Assembly (NCBI GenBank): GCA_030693335.1
Contig: JAUYAU010000001.1
Coordinates: 13,796-77,795, forward strand
DNA from: Sulfuricurvum sp.
GTDB lineage: Bacteria > Campylobacterota > Campylobacteria > Campylobacterales > Sulfurimonadaceae
Length of the DNA stretch: 64,000 nt
Reading direction: 5' to 3'
This document shows, one piece after another, positions 15,904-26,696 of this stretch. The first letter of the stretch is position 1; every line of letters begins with the position of its first letter. Below the pieces are notes generated by a model. That model was not told the origin of the DNA. It ran no database searches and was given only the letters and a program-made list of their open reading frames with translations. The translations under genes and the position numbers were made by a program.

Positions 15904-16359
15904 CTACTTATCAACGATCATGGCTTTGAGTTCGGCTTGAGCTACAAGGGCATCGTCTACGTATGCTTTGCCTTCCAATACCCAAATAGACCCTTTGTGC
16001 TTGACAACGGTCATACGGTACTCAAGACGATCTCCCGGACGGACAGGGGCGCGAAATTTTGCACCGTCAATGCTCATAAAATAAACAACTTTTTTCGCGG
16101 CCTCTTCCTCGGTCATGTCCATGCTTTGAAATGCCAAGATTCCGCCTGCTTGGGCCATCCCTTCCAATATCATAACACCTGGGTAAATAGGGTGACCTGG
16201 GAAATGTCCCTCGAATATTTGTTCACCGATAGTGACGTTTTTGAATCCGATAAGAGATTCATTGGGGGTAATCTCTGTTACTCTGTCAACAAGAAGAAAT
16301 GGAAAACGGTGTGGTAAAATTTTTTGTATTTGAATAACATCCATCATATGCAAGAACAC
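15904..16359 (-). CDS. fabZ: 3-hydroxyacyl-ACP dehydratase
   Basis: [11 protein letters not shown] and [22 protein letters not shown]; the start may be a few codons downstream. Confidence 0.97.
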
Positions 16360-16398
16360 CTTGGTAAAATTAAGTCGTTTATTTTAGCGTAAAAACGG

Positions 16399-17481
16399 TT
16401 AATTGATAATTATAAGTTGTTCTCTCGTATCTTCGTAGGTTTTTGTTTCTAAGGTCAGAGTGGTTTTGGAAGTTGGAATTTCATCGAGGACGACGATGGC
16501 AGAAGTATTAAAAGCACTTTGTGTTAATTGCGCACGCAATGCAATTTCGGTTTCAATCGCGGGCGCACTGAACATCAGTTCTTGAGTGTTTTTATAACTA
16601 GATGAGGTGAGAGCATTGAAGCTTTCGAGGGTGATAAAACGGACCTCTTCACGATTGAGAAAATGTTGACCATTTAATTCAAAGTCGATTTTCCCTTCCG
16701 TACGTGTACGGTTGATCGTTGAGTAGATGAGTGGATAGGAAGGGATGATGTTTCCTTCAGTTTTTACCGATGCACGCATCAGTCGATAGTTTAAAAAACG
16801 CTCACGTATGATTTTGTACGGAATATTTGCATCTTCGAGATCCATACGTTTGGAGTAGAGTTTAAGCCGTTCTTCGATGGAAGCGGGAAGGATTTGTTTG
16901 GATAGGGGAGAAAACATCTCATCCATCAATTTATGTTGTTGATCACGCTGCATGGAAAGTCCAAAAATACATCCGCAATAGTCTTGTCGATAGAGCTGTT
17001 CAGTTTTACTGACTCGTGATTGGTCGTTCGTGCCACCGTTTTTACGATAATCAAAGGCAATGAATTCAACGCCGTGAGAGGCATGAAAGGCATCGCCGGA
17101 TTTTTTAAGCTGGTCTTGCGATTTTTGAGGGCTGACGAGAAGGGTAGTGGTCATCGAGGTTTCGCCAAGTTCCAGAGCTTTATGGGCGCTTATTTCAAAA
17201 CGGCGATCAAAGCAGACTTCACAACGGGCACCTTTTTCCGGCTCTTTTTCTAGCCCTCGGACGGCATCCATCCAGTTTTCATAATCATAGGGTCCTTCGA
17301 TGAGGTCAATACCCAGTTTTTTACAGCTTCGCTCAACGTCTAAAAGGCGTAAACGGTATTCGCTGTAAGGGTGGATATTGGGATCATAGAAAAACCCTGT
17401 GAGCTTTTCATCGGGGTATTCTTGCTGCAATTTCTCCATAAAAAAATGGGAATCAACGCTGCAGCAGATGTGGACAAGCAT
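16399..17481 (-). CDS. queH: Epoxyqueuosine reductase QueH (DUF208) with C-terminal extension
   Basis: LVHICCSVDS, FYDPNIHPYSEY, RCEVCF and YRQDYCGC motifs. Confidence 0.85.
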   Translation of the reverse strand: MLVHICCSVDSHFFMEKLQQEYPDEKLTGFFYDPNIHPYSEYRLRLLDVERSCKKLGIDLIEGPYDYENWMDAVRGLEKEPEKGARCEVCFDRRFEISAHKALELGETSMTTTLLVSPQKSQDQLKKSGDAFHASHGVEFIAFDYRKNGGTNDQSRVSKTEQLYRQDYCGCIFGLSMQRDQQHKLMDEMFSPLSKQILPASIEERLKLYSKRMDLEDANIPYKIIRERFLNYRLMRASVKTEGNIIPSYPLIYSTINRTRTEGKIDFELNGQHFLNREEVRFITLESFNALTSSSYKNTQELMFSAPAIETEIALRAQLTQSAFNTSAIVVLDEIPTSKTTLTLETKTYEDTREQLIIIN

Positions 17482-17483
17482 AA

Positions 17484-17990
17484 TTAGTCGCGTGCAGCCA
17501 AGATTTCTACTTTCTCAATAACATCGCGCATTTGGATGCTATCAAGGACTGACATAGACTCTTTATCGTCTGCTTCGATACCGCCGAAAACGGTGTGAAC
17601 GCCATCAAGGTGTGGAGTGCTGGCAAAACAGATGAAAAACTGGCTTCCACCCGTGTTTGGTCCTGCGTGTGCCATTGACAATGTTCCTTTAACGTGAGGG
17701 TGCTTGTTAAGTGATGTTTCGCAAGGAATAGCCCATCCCGGTCCGCCTGTACCTGTACCTGTAGGACAACCGCCTTGAGCCATGAACCCTGGAATTACAC
17801 GGTGAAAATTAAGACCATTATAATAGCCATCATTCACAAGCGCTGCAAAGTTAGCAACCGTATTAGGTGTTTCGTCATTATAAAGTTTAATCCACATAAC
17901 CCCTTTTTCAGTGGTCATTTTTGCCCATTGATAGCTTGCCAACTCTTCGGAAGTCGGTGTATACGTTTTAAGTTCTTTGCGTCCGAACAT
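17484..17990 (-). CDS. Cyclophilin-type peptidyl-prolyl cis-trans isomerase
   Basis: FHRVIPGFMAQGG, SMAHAGPNTGGSQFFI, HLDGVHTVFG. Confidence 0.95.
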   Translation of the reverse strand: MFGRKELKTYTPTSEELASYQWAKMTTEKGVMWIKLYNDETPNTVANFAALVNDGYYNGLNFHRVIPGFMAQGGCPTGTGTGGPGWAIPCETSLNKHPHVKGTLSMAHAGPNTGGSQFFICFASTPHLDGVHTVFGGIEADDKESMSVLDSIQMRDVIEKVEILAARD

Positions 17991-18079
17991 AACTTGTCCT
18001 TATTGGAGTATTTTTGAAATTATAGTCGATTTTTCTTAACCAATCGGTGTGTCTCATCAACGAGTTTAAAAATATAATT

Positions 18080-19801
18080 TTATCTGTTCAGTAACAGTAA
18101 AATAATGCCCAACAATATAAAAGAGATACCTTTCCAAATAACGACTGGATGACGTTCGATTAATGGTGGTCTAGTCCTGTTTACAAAGGCACTGTTGGGG
18201 TGGCGAAGATCATAAATGAATTCTGACAATTCACCATAGCGCTCATACGGATCGGGTTGCAAAGCTTTTTTAAGCGCTTCATCTATCCACACCGGTATCT
18301 TGCTATCTTCAGACTCTAAAGAGGCATATTTTAATTTTTTTTGTGCAGCCTTTGTTGTGCACCGTGCTACTTGTACTCCATATGGAAACTCTCCAGATAA
18401 CATTTGGTAAACAATCACACCTAAAGAAAAAAGGTCGGATCGGGATGTGCCTATTTTTCCAAGGAAATATTCCGGTGCAGAGTAAAGAGCCGTTCCTAAA
18501 AGATTCTCTTGATCAAGATAGGTGTTCACATCAACAATTCCTTCAACACGTGTTGAGCCAAAATCGATTATTTTTACCGTCCCGGAATTGTCAATAATAA
18601 TATTATCCGGCCTGAGATCTTGATGTATCATCTCTTGGCGGTGAAAAGCGAGTAAGCCTCTGGCTATTTGTTCTGCGATTTTCCGTACCGTTTCTATGTT
18701 TGGTTTTGGGTTGTCTATCATCCATTGCTTTAGTGTCTGACCCTCAATAAATTCTGTTACAGTATAAAAATAATTGCGTTTACGCGTTTGAAGATAAGAT
18801 TTCGCCACGTGGGGACTGTTTATACGTATTGCTATCCACTCTTCCATCAAAAAGCGTTCAAGATAGGCTTTATCATCTCTTAAATCGATAGAAGGTGTTT
18901 TTAATACCACAGATGTGCCGGTTTCATCATCTCGAGCAAGGTAAACATGGCTTCGACTGCTGGAACTGAGTATACGTATAATGGTATATCCATCAAAAGA
19001 ACTTCTAGATTCAAGGATGGGAGGGAAGGGTTTATGCGTCAATTGTTTATGGATTTCATCGATATTCTTATGGGGCAGAGCGTCTATGCGTACAATTTGA
19101 ATAGTTAAGTTATCGGTACTGCCCTCATCGTAAGCTTTGTCTGCAATGGTTTTTGCCATGGATTCAAATAAATGATTTTTCTCTTGTAACGTTTCGATAA
19201 TAAAGTCAGTACTCACAAACTCGTAAACACCATCCGTCATGAATAGGAAGGTATCGTTTTTTTCTACCGAAAAGCTTTCGTAATCCGTTGCTACTTGAGT
19301 GTCCATGCCCAGAGCTCGGCTGAGGTAACTTTTGTCCCTTGAAATCCAAAGTCGATGGTCTTCAGTCAATTGTTCAAGTCGGTTGTCACGTAATCGATAG
19401 ATACGGGTATCACCTGCATGAAATATATGGGCTGTTGAGGAACGAATGATCATGCCGCTAAAGGTACAGACATAGCCTCTGTCTTTGTCATAATGATATT
19501 GGCCTTGCTTGCTTTGGCTGTATAGCCAAGAATTGGTAGCACTTAAGACACGCTCTGCTGATTTCTTGACAGACCAGGATTCCGGGGTCGAAAAGTAATC
19601 AATTAAAAAAGAGGTAACGGATACCTTGCTGGCAATTTGGCTGACATCACTGCTGCTGATGCCGTCTGCAAGGGCAATAGCAATTCCTTTATTGGTCAGC
19701 TGCGGCTCTTTGGGAATACAGATATCGTGAAAGTCTTGATTGATCTCTTTACGGCCTGAAGTGGAGTATTGGGCTATGGATACTTTTAATTGATTTCGCA
19801 T
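18080..19801 (-). CDS. Bifunctional PP2C-type phosphatase / Hanks-type Ser/Thr kinase with C-terminal TM helix
   Basis: PP2C motifs ALADG, HAGDTR, MTDG, TDN; kinase motifs VVLK, HQDLRPDN, DFG, APE; hydrophobic C-terminus. The start could be 19801 or 19837. Confidence 0.9.
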   Translation of the reverse strand: MRNQLKVSIAQYSTSGRKEINQDFHDICIPKEPQLTNKGIAIALADGISSSDVSQIASKVSVTSFLIDYFSTPESWSVKKSAERVLSATNSWLYSQSKQGQYHYDKDRGYVCTFSGMIIRSSTAHIFHAGDTRIYRLRDNRLEQLTEDHRLWISRDKSYLSRALGMDTQVATDYESFSVEKNDTFLFMTDGVYEFVSTDFIIETLQEKNHLFESMAKTIADKAYDEGSTDNLTIQIVRIDALPHKNIDEIHKQLTHKPFPPILESRSSFDGYTIIRILSSSSRSHVYLARDDETGTSVVLKTPSIDLRDDKAYLERFLMEEWIAIRINSPHVAKSYLQTRKRNYFYTVTEFIEGQTLKQWMIDNPKPNIETVRKIAEQIARGLLAFHRQEMIHQDLRPDNIIIDNSGTVKIIDFGSTRVEGIVDVNTYLDQENLLGTALYSAPEYFLGKIGTSRSDLFSLGVIVYQMLSGEFPYGVQVARCTTKAAQKKLKYASLESEDSKIPVWIDEALKKALQPDPYERYGELSEFIYDLRHPNSAFVNRTRPPLIERHPVVIWKGISFILLGIILLLLNR

Positions 19802-19827
19802 AGTGTTTTGGCAGCCTTGTAGAGATC

Positions 19828-19853
19828 GCCTCAACAATAGATGTTGAGGTTTT
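19828..19853. terminator. Hairpin between cynS and the kinase/phosphatase gene
   Basis: CCTCAACA-ATAGA-TGTTGAGG, 8-bp perfect stem; the T-run lies on the + strand side. Confidence 0.4.
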
Positions 19854-19898
19854 GGTTATCGTTATGAAGTTTACGTTCGATTGGGTTTCTTTTGCGTA

Positions 19899-20339
19899 TT
19901 ACCATGATTTATAAGGTAAAAATTTACCATTCATGGTGATGACGACTCTGTCTCCCAAAGGATTTTCTTCTTTGGCTATGTCCATTGAGAAATCAATGGC
20001 ACTCATGATTCCATCACCGAATTTCTCACCGATAATCTCTTTTATGGTCTCGCCATAAACGCCTATTGCTTCGTAAAAACGGTAGATTAATGGATCGGTT
20101 GGTATGATTTTATCCCAGTTTTTCATAGGATATTCTTGTAAAACCTGAGCAACCTCGGCAGATAATCCAAGAAGATCACACAGTTTTTCTGCCGGCTCTT
20201 TTTTAAGACTGTTCATCCCAAGACAAGCTGAGGTTAGAAAGACTGTCCCAAGTGAGACTTTTTTTGCAATTTCTTCCCAGCTTAAACCGGCACTCTTTTT
20301 AGCGGCTAAAATCTCTTCTGTCATCTCTATTTTTTTCAT
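19899..20339 (-). CDS. cynS: Cyanate hydratase (cyanase)
   Basis: PTDPLIYRFYE, EKFGDGIMSAIDF and GKFLPYKSW cyanase signatures; start at 20339 with AGGA RBS. Confidence 0.97.
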   Translation of the reverse strand: MKKIEMTEEILAAKKSAGLSWEEIAKKVSLGTVFLTSACLGMNSLKKEPAEKLCDLLGLSAEVAQVLQEYPMKNWDKIIPTDPLIYRFYEAIGVYGETIKEIIGEKFGDGIMSAIDFSMDIAKEENPLGDRVVITMNGKFLPYKSW

Positions 20340-20358
20340 AATAACATTCCTTCTATGA

Positions 20359-21171
20359 TTATTGTAAATTTCGTTTTGCACCTGTTTTGATATGCGTTGC
20401 GTAAAGTGTAAGACCTGTAAAGGCTAATCCGCCTACGAGATTACCGAATACTACAGGAAGCTCATTCCAAAGTAGATAATCCCAGATAGTAAAGTTACCA
20501 CCCATAATCATTGAAAACGGAAACAAGAACATATTGACAATAGAGTGTTCAAAGCCCATAAAGAAAAAGAGCATGACAGGCATCCACATAGCCAAAAACT
20601 TCCCACTGACTGTGGTTGAGATCATGGCACCCACGACACCCATAGAGACCATCCAGTTACAAAGCATACCACGGATAAATACGGTCAACCATCCCATCAC
20701 ACCGTGTGCTTGATACCCTAATGTGCGCGCTTCACCGATGCTTCCCAGTTTGTCACCAACAGGACCTCCATCAATGGAATAGCCATAGGTTAAAATAAAC
20801 GACATCATAAATGCAACCGTTAACGCCCCTGCGAAGTTACCAATAAACACAAGACCCCAGTTTCTAAGCATTTGCTTGACAGTAACCCCTGGACGCTTGT
20901 CAATTAAGGCTAGCGGCACTAAAACAAACACGCCCGTTAAGAGATCAAATCCCATAAGGTAAAGCATGATGAAACCAACCGGAAATAAAAGCGCGCCAAT
21001 AAGCGGCACTCCTGTTTGTATGGAGACAGTAATCGCAAATGCCGCCGCCAATCCTAAAATCGCACCTGCCATATAAGCACGAATGAGTGTGTCTTTAGTA
21101 GACATATACACTTTGGACTCACCTGAGTCGACCATTTTGGTAACAAATTCGGTAGGAACTAAATAAGACAT
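20359..21171 (-). CDS. Formate/nitrite transporter (FNT) family channel, probably cyanate uptake
   Basis: LFPVGF...DLLTG, GMLCNWMV and GFEHSIVNM FNT motifs; immediately upstream of cynS. Confidence 0.9.
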   Translation of the reverse strand: MSYLVPTEFVTKMVDSGESKVYMSTKDTLIRAYMAGAILGLAAAFAITVSIQTGVPLIGALLFPVGFIMLYLMGFDLLTGVFVLVPLALIDKRPGVTVKQMLRNWGLVFIGNFAGALTVAFMMSFILTYGYSIDGGPVGDKLGSIGEARTLGYQAHGVMGWLTVFIRGMLCNWMVSMGVVGAMISTTVSGKFLAMWMPVMLFFFMGFEHSIVNMFLFPFSMIMGGNFTIWDYLLWNELPVVFGNLVGGLAFTGLTLYATHIKTGAKRNLQ

Positions 21172-21344
21172 TTGAAACTCCTTAGTTTGAAATCACAACC
21201 GTGATGAAGTATTATTTCATATAATCAAGAGTTTCTAGTCTTAATATTGTATAAAAATTAATCATATTCATTGTACTATTATTAATTAGTACTATTTAAG
21301 ATCTATTTAGCATTGTATGTGGAGTATAATAAGAGACTTTAATT

Positions 21345-22553
21345 TTGGATTACGATGTGGAAAACTGGTTACAGCTTCGTTTGTCTCGACTCTCTTTACG
21401 GGAACTTCATTTCTACACAATTTTTCTTATTTTGATTCTTTTTGTCATTTTTTCATCTTTGCTTATCTATGATGAATATCATAACTTTTTAACAGCAGCG
21501 AGTCATACCATGACTAACACACAGGGGAATCCGATCGCCTTGAAAGGGGGTATGATAAAAATCATTTTGAATATTTCTACTTTGGCACTGATTTTATTTG
21601 GCTTGATTATTGGGATTTCAAAAATTGTCAACAGCATGATTGCCAGAGATATCAAACGGTTTTTAGACTTTTTCGAATCGATTCATGAAAAAGAGATATC
21701 CATTTATCCAGCCGATCTTTATTTTGACGAATTTAAAAAGATGGCCGGATATGCTAATGGCATGGCTATGATGATTTATGAGCAAAAAGAGTCACTGCAA
21801 TCTCTCAACGCCAGTTTGGAAGAACGGGTTAAACAAAAAACCGAGGCGTTGCAACTCAAAAATGAAGCACTTGAAGAGGAGCAAAAATTTTCACAAGGGC
21901 TGCTTGAATCGCATAAACAGTTTATCCGCTATGCGATTCATGAGACCCATACGCCACTGTCGGTGATTATGGCGAATATCGAGTTGTTTAGCATGAATGA
22001 GGGGCGTAATCGTTATTTGGCTAAAATCGAAGCGGCGGTTAAAAATATCTTTAGTATTTACGATGATTTAAGCTATTTGGTCAAAAAAGATCAAATAGAA
22101 TATCCTAAAAAAGCGATGGATTTGCGCGAATACGTTGAAAAAAGGCTTGAATTTTTTGATGAGGTTGCCCATTTTTCAAATCTCTCTTTTGAGTATGAGA
22201 CATCAGAATTTCCGGCATGGATACAGTTTAATGAGACGAAACTTCAGCGGGTTATCGATAATAATCTAACGAATGCGATCAAATATACCAAAAATGGAGA
22301 AAGCATACGAGTAGGGGTCGGTTCGAATCTCGATGAATGTACTTTTTGGGTTGAAAGTCATTCGCAAAAAATTGAAGATGTCAATAAAATTTTTGAAGCG
22401 TACTACCGTGAGCGTAAAAAAACAGATGGGTTTGGATTGGGGCTTAGTTTGGTCAAATCAATTTGTGATGAAGAAGGGGTGAGCATTCGTATTGATTCAA
22501 CGGTTGAATACACCCGTTTTGAGTATCAGTTTCCTAAAAAGGGGCATATTTGA
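21345..22553 (+). CDS. Membrane sensor histidine kinase with only a short periplasmic loop
   Basis: Two TM helices, coiled coil, H-box HETHTPL, N-box NAIKYT, G-box GFGLGLS; start codon uncertain (TTG 21345 or GTG 21357). Confidence 0.9.
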   Translation: MDYDVENWLQLRLSRLSLRELHFYTIFLILILFVIFSSLLIYDEYHNFLTAASHTMTNTQGNPIALKGGMIKIILNISTLALILFGLIIGISKIVNSMIARDIKRFLDFFESIHEKEISIYPADLYFDEFKKMAGYANGMAMMIYEQKESLQSLNASLEERVKQKTEALQLKNEALEEEQKFSQGLLESHKQFIRYAIHETHTPLSVIMANIELFSMNEGRNRYLAKIEAAVKNIFSIYDDLSYLVKKDQIEYPKKAMDLREYVEKRLEFFDEVAHFSNLSFEYETSEFPAWIQFNETKLQRVIDNNLTNAIKYTKNGESIRVGVGSNLDECTFWVESHSQKIEDVNKIFEAYYRERKKTDGFGLGLSLVKSICDEEGVSIRIDSTVEYTRFEYQFPKKGHI

Positions 22554-23212
22554 AAATCTTTCTACTTGAAGATGAACAGATGCTCAGTGATGCTATCAAT
22601 GAGTATTTGCTAGCTTTAGGGCATCGTGTTGTTGTCTGCTACGATGGAAGCGAAGCGCTGGTGTCTATACAAGCAGAGAATTTTGATTTGCTCATATTGG
22701 ATATCAATGTTCCGGGAATCGACGGATTGGATTTGCTCGAACAGCTCCATATTCTTAAAATTCGCCCTCCTGCTATCTATATCAGCGCATTGGCAGATAT
22801 TGAGGGAATCAGTCGGGCGTATGATCTTGGGTGTTATGATTATCTCAAAAAGCCGTTTCACCTTAAAGAACTCTCTTTGCGCATTGATAAAGTAATGCAG
22901 GTATGTGCAGTGCCGCAAAATCATCTTTGCCTCTCAAAAAGTTACAGTTACGATGCCTCCACTTCTACCTTACAGTGTGAAAATACGATACAGCCACTTT
23001 CAAGACGGCAATTGCAGATTATTGACTTATTGGCACGCAATAGGGGAAGGGTAGTCGATTTTGACCAATTTCGCATCTATATATGGGATGATGAATACGT
23101 CGATAATGCTACGATTAGAGCGGAGGTAAGCCGTCTGAAAAAAAGTCTCAAAGAAGATTTCATCCAAAACATTCGGGCATTAGGTTATATGATCGATATT
23201 CCTAAAAGCTAA
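22550..23212 (+). CDS. OmpR-family DNA-binding response regulator
   Basis: LLEDE, LLILD, KKPF receiver motifs; winged helix ending IQNIRALGY; overlaps the kinase stop. Confidence 0.93.
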   Translation: MKIFLLEDEQMLSDAINEYLLALGHRVVVCYDGSEALVSIQAENFDLLILDINVPGIDGLDLLEQLHILKIRPPAIYISALADIEGISRAYDLGCYDYLKKPFHLKELSLRIDKVMQVCAVPQNHLCLSKSYSYDASTSTLQCENTIQPLSRRQLQIIDLLARNRGRVVDFDQFRIYIWDDEYVDNATIRAEVSRLKKSLKEDFIQNIRALGYMIDIPKS

Positions 23213-23284
23213 TCGTGCTACTTTTTTACACACACGTCTCCTAATATTAAAATTTCTGACGATAAATTTTTCTAATTTTACCTT

Positions 23285-23317
23285 TGCTACGTTCATGCTA
23301 CGTTTTGTTTTCATAAT
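23285..23317 (+). promoter_or_regulatory. Tandem direct repeat (OmpR/PhoB-type box) over the -35 region of the porin-actP promoter
   Basis: TGCTACGTT at 23285 and 23296 (11-bp period), then a CATAAT -10 at 23312-17. Confidence 0.65.
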
Positions 23318-23352
23318 GGCACTGTTAAAAACTTTTGGTTTGAGGAGTGTAT

Positions 23353-24708
23353 ATGAGAGGTACAGTATCTCTGTCGCTTTTGGCATCGGCTTTGGTTGTC
23401 AATGCTTTTGGTGCAGACGATTTGGCAGGAATGTTCAAAGAGGGGAAAGCAAGCGGTCAAATCCGGATGTTTTGGGTTGATCGTGAATACCAAGGGACAG
23501 CTGGAAACAAGACGCATAGAGATGCGACAGCCATCGGCGGTTATTTGAAATATGAAACAGGAGATTTCAAAGGACTTACTCTAGGGACTGCATTTTATAC
23601 GACAAATGGTCTTTTTATAGAGTTACCAAGAGAGGATTACTCCCAAAATGATATGACACTGCTGGGACCCAATAATGATAACTACTCAATGGTAGGTGAG
23701 CTTTATGCTCAATATAAAAGAGGAAATACTACATTCAAAGGTGGTCGTCAGAAACTGGATATTCATATGGCAGGAAGCGATGATGTTCGTATGACTCCTA
23801 ACTTGTTTGAAGCCTATTTATTGACAAATAAAGATGTTCCCAATACAACACTTGTAGCAGGACATATCACCAAATTCGCCCAAGGTAGTTTTGGGCGAGT
23901 TTATAATCACACAGAAGCAAGTTCAGAAGCTTCCAAATTACTTTCCGTTACCTCGGGTTATTCTTACGTTAATAGCCTCGATCAAGTAGGTGAATTTGTC
24001 AATATGGGAACGTATACTCTTGGTCAATCAACAAACGGGGTATCGGTTCTCTCAGCAACGTATACGGGAATAGAAAATCTAAAATTACAGTTGTGGGACT
24101 ATTACGCCCACGACATCGCGAATATCATTTACGGTGAAGCAAATCTCAATTGGAAAAGTTTTATCAGTGATAACATAAAACCAAGTGCGGGGCTTCAGAT
24201 CATCAAACAAAATGATGTCGGGGATGCATATGCAGGAGAGCTTGAAGGGTTATATGCCGCTGGAAAAGTTGGATTCCAAATCAATAACTTTGATATAGGA
24301 TTTTCATACTCACAAACAGCAAAAAACAATGCTACAGATTCGAAATTGAAAAATGCCATCATCACGCCATGGGGTGGAATACCGGCATACACGCAGGGGA
24401 TGGTAACACGTCATATGTTTTTGGCTGGAACTAAAGCGTGTAAAGTAAATGGTGGCTACAATTTTAAAGATCTTGGCGCTAGTTTAACAACTTCTGCCTA
24501 TTATACAGCGTTTGATATGGATAAAAACAGTGGATATGGGTTGGAAAGAACTGCAAGTGAGGCTGGATTCGAAGCAATCTATTACCCGGAATATGTCAAA
24601 AACTTACAGCTTCGCTTTCGTGGAAATTTTCCAAGAAATTTTGCAGAAGGTTCTAGCGGAACAACGGGCTGGAGTGAGTATCGCTTCATTGCAAACTATA
24701 ACTTTTAA
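23353..24708 (+). CDS. OprD-family outer-membrane porin
   Basis: GAGGAG RBS; signal peptide; FKGGRQKLD motif; amphipathic beta strands; C-terminal YNF. Confidence 0.85.
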   Translation: MRGTVSLSLLASALVVNAFGADDLAGMFKEGKASGQIRMFWVDREYQGTAGNKTHRDATAIGGYLKYETGDFKGLTLGTAFYTTNGLFIELPREDYSQNDMTLLGPNNDNYSMVGELYAQYKRGNTTFKGGRQKLDIHMAGSDDVRMTPNLFEAYLLTNKDVPNTTLVAGHITKFAQGSFGRVYNHTEASSEASKLLSVTSGYSYVNSLDQVGEFVNMGTYTLGQSTNGVSVLSATYTGIENLKLQLWDYYAHDIANIIYGEANLNWKSFISDNIKPSAGLQIIKQNDVGDAYAGELEGLYAAGKVGFQINNFDIGFSYSQTAKNNATDSKLKNAIITPWGGIPAYTQGMVTRHMFLAGTKACKVNGGYNFKDLGASLTTSAYYTAFDMDKNSGYGLERTASEAGFEAIYYPEYVKNLQLRFRGNFPRNFAEGSSGTTGWSEYRFIANYNF

Positions 24709-24720
24709 GGAGATGCAATT

Positions 24721-25035
24721 ATGAAACAAGAAATGGTTGATCGTATTAAAAACGATCCTGATTTTACACAGCTTGTCCGCGTACGAAGCAAGTTTGCATG
24801 GACATTGACGATTGTAATGCTGGTGATTTATTTTGGATTTGTGCTGACGATCGCATTTGATCCGTCGATTTTGGGTACTCCGCTCTCAAGCGGTTCGGTA
24901 ACAACAGTTGGTATTCCAGTGGGGATAGGTGTTATATTGAGTGCCTTTATTTTAACAGGGATTTATGTTCGACGTGCAAACGGTGAATTTGATGAGCTTA
25001 CTCGTCGTATTAAAGACAAAGCGAAGGGGGAATAA
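24721..25035 (+). CDS. DUF485 (YjcH-like) inner-membrane protein
   Basis: Two TMs, [12 protein letters not shown] motif; directly upstream of actP. Confidence 0.88.
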
Positions 25036-26696
25036 TGAAACCGATAATCTTTTTACTCTTAGGCTCAGCCGGAATATTTGCCGGTGAAGCCATTAGCGGT
25101 GCGGTAGAAAAGCAACCGTTAAATATGTCGGCGATTATCATGTTCTTGATTTTCGTTGGAGCAACACTTGCTATCACCTATTGGGCAGCAAAACGTACCA
25201 AAACAGCAAAAGATTTTTATACCGCAGGCGGTGGAATTACCGGTTTTCAAAACGGTATGGCGATTGCAGGAGACTATATGTCTGCGGCATCGTTTTTAGG
25301 TATTTCAGCGCTTGTTTACGGACAAGGGTATGATGGACTCATCTACTCTATCGGTTTTTTAGTGGGATGGCCGATTATTTTGTTCATGGTAGCAGAGCAG
25401 CTTCGTAACTTGGGTAAATATACATTTGCGGACGTTGCATCGTACCGTTTGCGTCAAATGCCTATTCGTACATTGGCGGCGTTTGGATCAATTTTGACAG
25501 TTGTTTTGTATCTTATCGCTCAAATGGTAGGTGCAGGTAAACTTATCCAGCTTCTTTTTGGATTGGATTATGAAATTGCCGTTATTTTGGTTGGGGTATT
25601 GATGATTCTTTACGTCACTTTTGGCGGAATGCTGGCAACAACATGGGTTCAAATCATCAAAGCCTTCCTGCTCCTCTCAGGTGCGACCTTTATGGCGATT
25701 GCGGTTATGGCACATTATAACTTTAACTTCGAATCGTTGTTTGCAACGGCTGTGCAGATGAAAGACGTTTCTATTATGTCTCCAGGGAAACTTGTCAGTG
25801 ATCCTATCTCGGCTATTTCACTGGGTATTGCTTTGATGTTTGGTACGGCGGGTCTTCCACATATTTTGATGCGTTTTTTCACGGTCAGTGATGCAAAAGA
25901 GGCTCGTAAATCAGTTTTTTATGCGACAGGATTTATCGGATATTTTTACATTCTGACATTCATCATCGGTTTTGGTGCGATTGTTTTGGTTTTCCAAAAC
26001 CCGCAATATCTTGATCTTGCAAAACAAGCTGTTGACGGTGGTTATCCAATCCTTGGGGGTGACAATATGGCGGCAATCCACCTTTCCCATGCAGTAGGGG
26101 GCGATTTCTTCCTCGGATTTATTTCCGCGGTAGCGTTTGCAACAATTCTTGCGGTTGTTTCCGGGTTGACACTCGCTGGTGCTTCGGCAATATCTCATGA
26201 TCTGTACGCCAGTGTTATAAAAAAAGGTAAAACTGATGGATTGATGGAGATGAAAGTTTCAAAAATTGCAACGATTGTTCTGGGTATCGTAGCGATTTTC
26301 CTTGGAATTATTTTCGAAGATCAAAATATTGCGTTTATGGTCGGATTGGCATTCGCTATCGCTGCAAGTGCCAACTTCCCAATTTTGTTTCTTTCTATGT
26401 ATTGGTCAAAACTTACTACAAGAGGAGCGTTGCTTGGTGGTTCATTAGGTCTTCTTACAGCAGCGGTATTGGTTATTCTAGGGCCTACGGTATGGGTTGA
26501 TGTATTGGGCAATGCTCAAGCAATTTTTCCATATAAATATCCGGCACTTTTTTCTGTGAGTGCAGCGTTTATCGGTATTTGGTTCTTCTCTATTACTGAC
26601 AGCAGTGATGAGGCTGCCAAAGAGCGTGAAGCATTTGAAGCACAATATGTCCGGGCTCAAACGGGTATCGGTGCTGAGGGTGCCTTGGAGCATTAA
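25035..26696 (+). CDS. actP: Cation/acetate symporter (SSS/SLC5 family)
   Basis: [32 protein letters not shown] motifs. Confidence 0.93.

Follow-up and report, generated by a model that had tools for sequence, protein, structure and literature searches.

A conserved gene pair of FNT channel and tail-anchored kinase/phosphatase in Sulfuricurvum and its relatives: a candidate phospho-switch for nitrite and cyanate uptake

Nitrite and cyanate are useful nitrogen sources and yet toxic, and channels of the FNT family are potential leaks for such weak-acid anions. How the entry of these anions might be kept under control is the question raised by a short operon of Sulfuricurvum sp., situated in a 64,000-nucleotide (nt) stretch of contig JAUYAU010000001.1 (the window, to whose whole length our coordinates refer unless another locus is named). 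Three tightly spaced, co-oriented open reading frames (ORFs) on the minus strand encode, in this order, an FNT-family anion channel, the cyanase CynS and a fusion of a PP2C-type phosphatase with a Hanks-type Ser/Thr kinase. A first-pass annotation of this DNA had reported the same three-gene run, and the ORFs were indeed recovered at those positions and on that strand; it had read them as a cyanate module, in which the fusion switches either the channel or the cyanase. Our comparison across genomes indicates otherwise, in that the conserved unit is the FNT gene together with the fusion gene rather than a cyanate module.

The evidence for this unit comes from a survey of relatives with one genome per species, which proceeded by crude gene calling, clustering and then tblastn; 372 relatives were returned, and the best 80 loci were kept and, with the window, make up the 81 loci considered here. 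An FNT gene stands immediately upstream of the fusion gene, on the same strand, in 80 of the 81, and hence in all 80 loci in which this could be assessed, the contig of the sole exception ending 449 nt upstream of the fusion gene. This order is far beyond chance, and the earlier suggestion that a neighbourhood survey might find the fusion enriched beside nitrogen-anion transporters is thereby borne out. Loci with the pair come from four classes (Campylobacterota and Alpha-, Beta- and Gammaproteobacteria), and in the fusion tree Campylobacterota and Pseudomonadota fall on two cleanly separated sides. Mean pairwise identity among the loci is 77% for the FNT as compared to 65% for the fusion. Among 151 genomes sampled evenly from the window's order, only four besides the window's own had FNT orthologs of 76-87% identity, and in all four a fusion ortholog lay 14-550 nt downstream of the FNT ortholog. 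FNTs of 46% and 36% identity in the same sample had no fusion, and four sampled genomes without an FNT ortholog had only a fusion of about 30% identity, similar to a NarK-linked paralog of the window's own genome that is described below.

We also considered single-chain proteins that join an FNT to the fusion, in the manner of a Rosetta stone, and rejected them: the metagenome proteins P0186 and P0238 arise by frameshifted read-through from an FNT gene into the fusion gene next to it, and other long FNT representatives are assembly chimeras. Underneath the frameshifts of P0186 and P0238 lies the same adjacency of FNT and fusion genes. One locus (L025) is labelled Candidatus Paceibacteria; it nests in the Arcobacter clade with 99% support and has Arcobacter-like neighbour genes, and its contig was probably mis-binned rather than derived from a candidate phyla radiation (CPR) bacterium with the module.

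What speaks most strongly for the transporter as the functional partner of the fusion is a second pair in the window's genome, outside the window itself (G000:C8; L086:13427-16439, minus strand). Here the gene for a NarK-type porter of the major facilitator superfamily (MFS; 427 amino acids, aa) directly precedes that for another PP2C/kinase fusion, a paralog of 560 aa with 29% identity, and genes for a molybdopterin nitrate reductase and a NirA-type nitrite reductase, together with cobA, are found 7 kb away. The FNT-linked and the NarK-linked pair also occur together in several methanotroph and Gallionella loci. Two transporters of unrelated fold are thus each accompanied by a regulator of their own, and it is because each fold has its own deep fusion paralog that we regard the transporter as the partner. 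The kinship to fusions of nitrate operons (for instance PA1782) that the first-pass annotation had pointed to also holds, both in this NarK-linked paralog and in a nasA-ppkB arrangement in Pseudomonas that is in print (PMC3596284). A third kinase-domain match in the genome (G000:C12:114676-115482, L083) lies within a 1947-aa open frame and is unrelated to the transporter-linked fusions, with 27% identity over the kinase domain only.

The cyanase gene behaves differently from the channel gene. CynS is a cyanase by its family models (207.6 bits against a cutoff of 150 for NF002773, 164.7 against 113.3 for TIGR00673, with matches to both PF21291 and PF02560), and it has catalytic-type residues in the Arg and Glu of YRFYE and the Ser of IMSAI, which we take to be the counterparts of R96, E99 and S122 in E. 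coli CynS. Only 31 of the 81 loci have cynS, however, either between the FNT and fusion genes or just after the fusion gene, as in Methylotuvimicrobium buryatense 5G (L035), and its presence changes state at least 14 times on the fusion tree, so that the label of a cyanate module no longer fits. Of the loci surveyed, 52 span 12 kb or more; cynS alone is found in 14 of these, nitrate/nitrite genes alone (nirBD, nirA, nasC, narK and nrtABD were counted) in 18, both kinds in 8 and neither in 12. To the channel-fusion unit cynS is an accessory, carried as optional cargo. At L093:3538-4807 the arrangement is another: a short gene of 83 aa with a cyanate-lyase domain, perhaps truncated, precedes an FNT gene (44% identity) that has no fusion, and several transposase genes surround the two, which makes this a cynS-FNT pair in a mobile setting.

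Both halves of the fusion have intact catalytic centres. Its Pfam matches are PP2C_2 (E 1e-12) and Pkinase (E 8.5e-37); at the level of scores, the kinase domain has the Hanks-type fold (PF00069, 127.4 bits against a cutoff of 31.7) and the phosphatase domain the PP2C fold (PF13672, 48.5 against 24; PF00481, 29.5 against 20.3). The motifs NQD23, D46G47, GDTR131, D190G191, D230N231, VVLK301, DFG413-415 and APE and a hydrophobic tail at 559-571 are present (residue numbers of the 573-aa protein), and every motif that had been named from the letters, namely the DG, DG and DN of the PP2C domain, the Ser-rich P-loop, HQDLRPDN and the C-terminal transmembrane (TM) segment, was located in the protein. 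Across an alignment of 73 family members, among them NarK-linked paralogs with no more than 27-30% identity, invariance extends to the metal ligands and motifs of the PP2C domain (D23, D46-G47, G130-D131-R133, D190-G191, D230) and to K301, E320, H393, N400 and D413 of the kinase; D395 is at least 90% conserved. Because the catalytic residues have been kept across paralogs as distant as this, both activities appear to be under selection. A cluster 96% identical to the fusion bears the NCBI name "bifunctional protein-serine/threonine kinase/phosphatase" and there are 573-aa homologs with the same Pfam set; the architecture of this RefSeq family (PP2C, kinase and C-terminal TM segment in about 570 aa) is also that of the window's fusion.

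The AlphaFold 2 (AF2) model of the fusion (pLDDT, the predicted local distance difference test, 86.7; pTM, the predicted template-modelling score, 0.81) has the PP2C domain at residues 1-245, a short disordered linker, the kinase at 271-540, about ten further residues and a terminal helix at 552-572, in agreement with the C-terminal anchor of the first-pass annotation. Only one residue follows the TM helix, from which we deduce a tail anchor with both domains in the cytoplasm. Ahead of the helix is a conserved juxtamembrane motif, P-L-x-E-R-x-P-x3-W, of which P546, L547, R550, P552 and W556 are the conserved positions. In Foldseek searches the kinase domain matched PknB/Stk1 of S. aureus and PknB of M. 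tuberculosis (template-modelling score, target-normalised, 0.8-0.86) and the PP2C domain matched PppA (6jkv), STP (2pk0) and tPphA (2y09; about 0.8 on the same target-normalised scale). No solved structure spanning both domains was returned by Foldseek, kinases and PP2Cs being matched separately.

The motifs of the FNT-linked clade are nevertheless unusual when set against canonical kinases. The Gly-rich loop GxGxxGxV and the RD Arg and catalytic-loop Lys of the canonical HRDLKPxN are absent, and in their places are SSSSRSHVY, without any Gly, and HQDLRPDN. These oddities are themselves conserved to at least 90% in the clade: NQD for NED, DGISSS for DGxGG, a P-loop of the form a-S-s-R-S-H-v-Y (S281, R283, S284 and Y287 each at least 90% conserved), HQD (non-RD) and DLRPxN. 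The NarK-linked paralogs keep the canonical NED, DGxGG and HRD/K residues. An extra loop in the PP2C domain, QxQYxYDKD at about residues 98-108, is also a mark of the FNT-linked clade and, together with the juxtamembrane motif, is a candidate for docking on the channel. Such conservation would argue for tuned rather than lost chemistry.

Turning to the channel, the FNT is placed in its family by PF01226 (220.1 bits against a cutoff of 34.6), with the central His in GFEHS (residues 206-210) and the omega-loop Thr in DLLTG (76-80). It falls below the equivalog cutoffs both for FocA (130.6 against 290 for TIGR04060, 70.2 against 440 for NF008069) and for NirC (54.8 against 293 for NF008595). Among solved chains the closest to it is LCIA (9v2a, E 1.3e-26), with the FocA structures coming after, and the FNT aligns with both. 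No FNT residue cleanly separates channels with CynS from those without, the top mutual information being 0.31 of 0.96 bits; the same type of channel probably serves both nitrite and cyanate, which are small anions of weak acids. The likeness to LCIA also suggested that the FNT might supply bicarbonate to the cyanase, and we set this aside in favour of nitrite and cyanate as orthologs of this FNT are also found beside nirBD or nirA; bicarbonate, which cyanase uses as its co-substrate, may even so be carried, LCIA, the nearest solved structure, being an algal bicarbonate channel.

The cytoplasmic segments of 71 fusion-linked FNTs are near-invariant and rich in conserved Ser and Thr. Thr11, Ser24, Thr25 and Thr28 in the N-terminal helix are invariant in the clade, and further conserved residues are Thr97 in the TM2-TM3 loop and T259 and T263 in the C-tail; all of these are candidate phospho-acceptors. 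In FocA the N-terminal helix is the gating element. Thr11 was tried as a signature of a phospho-switch and rejected, the position being A, K, R, L, S, T, D or Q in 24 diverse FNT representatives with no general pattern, and it is kept as a candidate site only; in unlinked FNTs it is Asp in the 46%-identical FNT of genome G133 and Glu in LCIA and in V. cholerae FocA. The DKRPGVT insertion of the TM2-TM3 loop is missing in most FNT representatives of 33-47% identity.

What, then, might a kinase/phosphatase do beside such a channel? We propose, at what we judge to be an even chance, that the tail-anchored protein reversibly phosphorylates the cytoplasmic face of its own channel and thereby gates the flux of nitrite or cyanate. 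The fusion would lie beside the FNT pentamer with both catalytic domains held at the cytoplasmic face of the membrane, where the kinase would add, and the phosphatase remove, phosphate on Ser/Thr of the N-terminal helix, the TM2-TM3 loop and the C-tail, the two activities being opposed within one chain as in other bifunctional kinase/phosphatases. The phosphorylation state would open or close the pore within seconds, and the entry of a toxic weak-acid anion (nitrite, cyanate) could so be matched to the capacity of the downstream enzymes and to nitrogen status. In the window, where the downstream enzyme of the operon is a cyanase, the unit probably governs the entry of cyanate, and possibly of nitrite, for use as a nitrogen source. 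In favour of this proposal are that the constant partner of the fusion is a transporter and not any enzyme, and that a tail anchor without an extracytoplasmic domain places both active sites at the membrane.

Several observations weigh on the other side. The phosphorylation of the FNT is itself something that we infer, together with the channel as substrate, the target sites, the direction of the effect and the input signal, and gene adjacency alone fits equally well a channel that acts as sensor or scaffold for a substrate elsewhere. The Pfam scan and the AF2 model give the fusion no evident sensor domain. Its P-loop lacks all three glycines and its catalytic-loop Lys is Arg, such that kinase activity and specificity are predictions. 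Comparison with unlinked FNTs, at first three and then 24 representatives, singled out no fusion-specific phospho-site, and one FNT (P0121, 61% identity) whose next ORF is not a fusion carries both the DKRPGVT loop insertion and the C-tail Thr. Lastly, the FNT and fusion distances correlate at only r = 0.49 in a mirror-tree comparison made without species-tree control.

The main alternative is that the channel is the sensor or scaffold: the fusion would read anion flux or channel conformation and phosphorylate a soluble component of nitrogen assimilation (for instance nitrite reductase, cyanase, a PII-type protein or a transcription or antitermination factor), the two forming a transceptor-like pair. 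This would account for the same co-occurrence of FNT and fusion, for a fusion without a sensor domain of its own and for the failure of comparison to establish a fusion-specific site on the FNT, and the PP2C fold matches tPphA, a phosphatase of PII signalling. We nevertheless consider it a rather doubtful, if possible, explanation, in that no soluble partner is conserved nearby (cynS, nirBD, nirA and nas genes come and go), the pattern of one paralog per transporter is simplest if each fusion acts on its own transporter, and the tail anchor and linker of about 10 residues hold the kinase at the membrane. Were the soluble target CynS itself, as the first-pass annotation had offered for its cyanate-specific control module, one could point to the position of cynS between the channel and fusion genes in the window, and to the 31 of 81 loci in which it falls between the two or close behind them. 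The remaining 50 pairs have no cynS, though, and the gene changes state at least 14 times on the fusion tree; fusions from loci without it are 62-79% identical to that of the window, and it follows that their conserved function cannot need a cyanase. With about two thirds of the orthologous pairs lacking an adjoining cyanase, it is unlikely as a conserved substrate, and control of CynS activity by the fusion seems to us highly improbable.

The unusual motifs invite another thought, that the fusion is a crippled pseudo-kinase and, as a subunit of the channel, has a part in structure or assembly, only the phosphatase or neither domain being active. The Gly-free P-loop, HQD in place of HRD, the change of the catalytic-loop Lys to Arg and the DGISSS of PP2C motif 2 could all be cited for it, yet even deep paralogs keep K301, E320, D395, N400, D413 and every metal ligand of the PP2C domain, and conservation of the odd residues themselves at 90% or more suggests tuned chemistry; we find this improbable. 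Least credible of all is a generic or phage-defence Ser/Thr kinase, similar to PD-T4-6, that came by chance to stand in the operon. The PADLOC models for PD-T4-6 do match the kinase domain (E 1e-51) and MADS6 scores 120.6, but these matches are limited to the generic kinase domain and the curated cutoff for MADS6 is 460, and the fusion has a constant metabolic neighbourhood in 80 of 80 loci, nitrogen-type promoters and no adjacent defence genes.

If gating of the channel by its own fusion is kept as the preferred reading, a broader one may tentatively be built on it, namely that PP2C/kinase fusions with a tail anchor are modular phospho-switches of a general class in Proteobacteria and Campylobacterota, each private to its transporter, with one paralog recruited per nitrogen-anion importer (FNT or NarK). 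Their two opposed activities would set how far the cytoplasmic face of the transporter is phosphorylated and would thereby gate the flux on a scale of seconds. The Ser-for-Gly P-loop and DGISSS would then be adaptations to duty in a transporter phospho-switch.

Signals for expression differ between the two sides of the tree. In 14 of 40 Pseudomonadota loci, as compared to 0.12 expected, the FNT start is preceded at a distance of about 80 nt by a sigma-54-type element, TGGCAT-N5-TTGCT, a pattern that fits control of the unit by an NtrC-type nitrogen system; no such element was found upstream of the FNT gene in the Campylobacterota loci surveyed. There, a TTTATACA-like motif precedes the FNT gene in 18 of 27 loci (1.7 expected), and the window has TTTATACA at 21248-21255 as well as a direct repeat, ATAGTAC-N9-ATAGTAC, at 21273-21279 and 21289-21295, which could be a site for the OmpR-type regulator encoded divergently. 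The gap ahead of the fusion gene often folds stably, with a median z of -3.1 against mononucleotide shuffles and 63% of 62 gaps below -2; the hairpin of 9 bp in the window's own gap is modest (z -1.9), and no U-tract follows the stem-loop on the mRNA strand. Such structure might plausibly lower expression of the fusion relative to the channel. An Rfam scan of 16000-24000 returned no family.

We found no experimental work on the fusion family and no description of its FNT-linked clade in the full-text literature, most subscription journals lying outside this search. The family is catalogued in RefSeq and functionally unstudied, and the FNT-linked unit combines known kinds, a Hanks kinase/PP2C and an FNT channel. 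The nearest precedent is the nasA-ppkB arrangement of Pseudomonas sp. UW4, which is the subject of an annotation remark with a speculative analogy to the phosphorylation of plant nitrate transporters (NRT) (PMC3596284), and PA1782 has been listed as a putative kinase (PMC8560001). Fusions of this ppkB/PA1782 type in the nas clusters of Pseudomonas share with the window's fusion the order of PP2C, Hanks kinase and C-terminal TM segment and a gene directly after that of a nitrogen-oxyanion transporter, but differ in having 27-30% identity to it, an MFS porter as partner and canonical motifs. The pairs PknB-PstP, Stk1-Stp1, PrkC-PrpC and PpkA-PppA have the same two antagonistic catalytic folds and include the best structural matches; there the activities reside in two proteins, and the kinase acts on many substrates and is joined, through a TM segment in mid-chain, to a sensor outside the cell (PASTA and others), whereas the window's fusion is one chain, has no sensor, is tail-anchored and is tied genetically to one transporter.

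FNTs next to a cyanase have been noted before. In Nitrososphaera gargensis and Nitrospira lenta/defluvii, FNT-cynS pairs led to the hypothesis that the FNT is a low-affinity cyanate channel (PMC10753782). Those nitrifier pairs resemble the window in that an FNT adjoins a cyanase, and differ from it in having no kinase/phosphatase. To our knowledge, cyanate transport has been proven for no FNT. The E. coli cynTSX/CynR system likewise provides a cyanase with a dedicated membrane transporter, but in the window no carbonic anhydrase CynT, MFS porter CynX or LysR-type CynR lies nearby, and an FNT and a kinase/phosphatase are present instead. As for control of an FNT after translation, the marine cyanobacterial NitM takes up nitrite, an uptake that is not inhibited by cyanate, and its activity is controlled post-translationally by a C-terminal auto-inhibitory region (PMC4390861). 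NitM is thus an assimilatory FNT controlled via a cytoplasmic segment, as proposed here, although by an intrinsic C-terminal extension and with no dedicated kinase known. Phospho-gating of the proposed kind is familiar from plants, in the aquaporin SoPIP2;1 (loop B and C-tail Ser) and in Thr101 of Arabidopsis NRT1.1 (CIPK23 and a PP2C), and FNTs share an aquaporin-like fold. The resemblance is functional, lying in reversible Ser/Thr phosphorylation of cytoplasmic loops or tails, and implies no homology of the systems; the plant examples are eukaryotic, with kinases and phosphatases that are separate and shared.

The features of the locus are collected in Table 1.

Table 1. Positions of the channel, cyanase and fusion genes, and of elements within and between them, in the window
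Feature	Positions	Strand	Basis
FNT-family anion channel, 270 aa	20359-21171	minus	PF01226 E 3.6e-65
Cyanase CynS, 146 aa	19899-20339	minus	NF002773 207.6 bits vs cutoff 150
Tail-anchored bifunctional PP2C phosphatase / Hanks-type Ser/Thr kinase, 573 aa	18080-19801	minus	Pfam, homologs, AF2
PP2C domain, residues 1-245	19067-19801	minus	invariant columns, Foldseek
Kinase domain, residues 271-540	18182-18991	minus	motifs, Foldseek
Glycine-free Ser-rich P-loop ILSSSSRSHVY, residues 277-287	18941-18973	minus	alignment
Catalytic loop HQDLRPDN, residues 393-400	18602-18625	minus	alignment
C-terminal TM helix, residues 552-572	18086-18148	minus	AF2 model
FNT cytoplasmic N-terminal helix (part)	21088-21147	minus	conservation in 71 fusion-linked FNTs
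FNT TM2-TM3 cytoplasmic loop DKRPGVT	20881-20901	minus	conservation; two-residue insertion
9-bp stem-loop between cynS and fusion gene	19828-19850	minus	folding
Promoter/operator region, common to FNT and divergent histidine-kinase gene	21172-21344	minus	TTTATACA motif and direct repeat

Two of the gene starts were revised from the ORF list. cynS was listed as a 160-aa ORF with a GTG start that overlaps the FNT gene; because its homologs have 146 aa and the match to the family model begins at residue 15, we take the real start to be the ATG at 20339, and the gene so placed begins 20 nt past the FNT stop. The fusion was listed as a 585-aa ORF at 18080-19837 with a TTG start. Its homologs have 573 aa and the TTG at 19837 sits within the 9-bp hairpin, for which reasons the gene most likely begins at the ATG at 19801. 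The FNT gene is preceded by a good ribosome-binding site, AAGGAG.

Downstream of the fusion gene are housekeeping genes (cyclophilin, QueH, FabZ, LpxA and ClpX), an arrangement common only to the two nearest relatives, which are Sulfuricurvum-like Campylobacterota of 96% and 90% identity. The QueH (epoxyqueuosine reductase) of this group, at 16399-17481 on the minus strand, is confined to residues 1-175 of its 360-aa ORF, and for the C-terminal half there was no Pfam or NCBIfam match. The genes on the plus strand at 21345-26696, divergent from the FNT gene, encode a histidine kinase whose periplasmic loop is very short, a regulator of the OmpR family, a porin similar to OprD, a DUF485 protein and an ActP-like permease of the SSF family; the run resembles a cluster for acetate/monocarboxylate uptake and recurs in loci L001 and L002. 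Arcobacter/Sulfurovum loci (L025, L051, L058 and L067) have another pair of histidine kinase and response regulator divergent upstream of FNT, and in L058, the representative looked at among these, the histidine kinase has a CxxCH motif.

A dedicated kinase/phosphatase encoded with its channel represents a concrete candidate for post-translational control of anion uptake outside the cyanobacteria, in a pair that is strictly co-inherited across four classes and is carried by environmentally important autotrophs (sulfur oxidisers, methanotrophs and iron oxidisers). If the proposed gating is correct, the Ser/Thr phospho-gating of channels that is familiar in plants and animals would extend to bacterial nitrogen uptake, and a large, catalogued and unstudied protein family would have a function. 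Should the fusions also prove to be a general class, they may provide the missing mechanism for a classical effect, in which ammonium rapidly and reversibly inhibits the uptake of nitrite/nitrate in bacteria other than cyanobacteria, and the pair described here would be the first prokaryotic instance of phospho-gating of an aquaporin-fold FNT channel.

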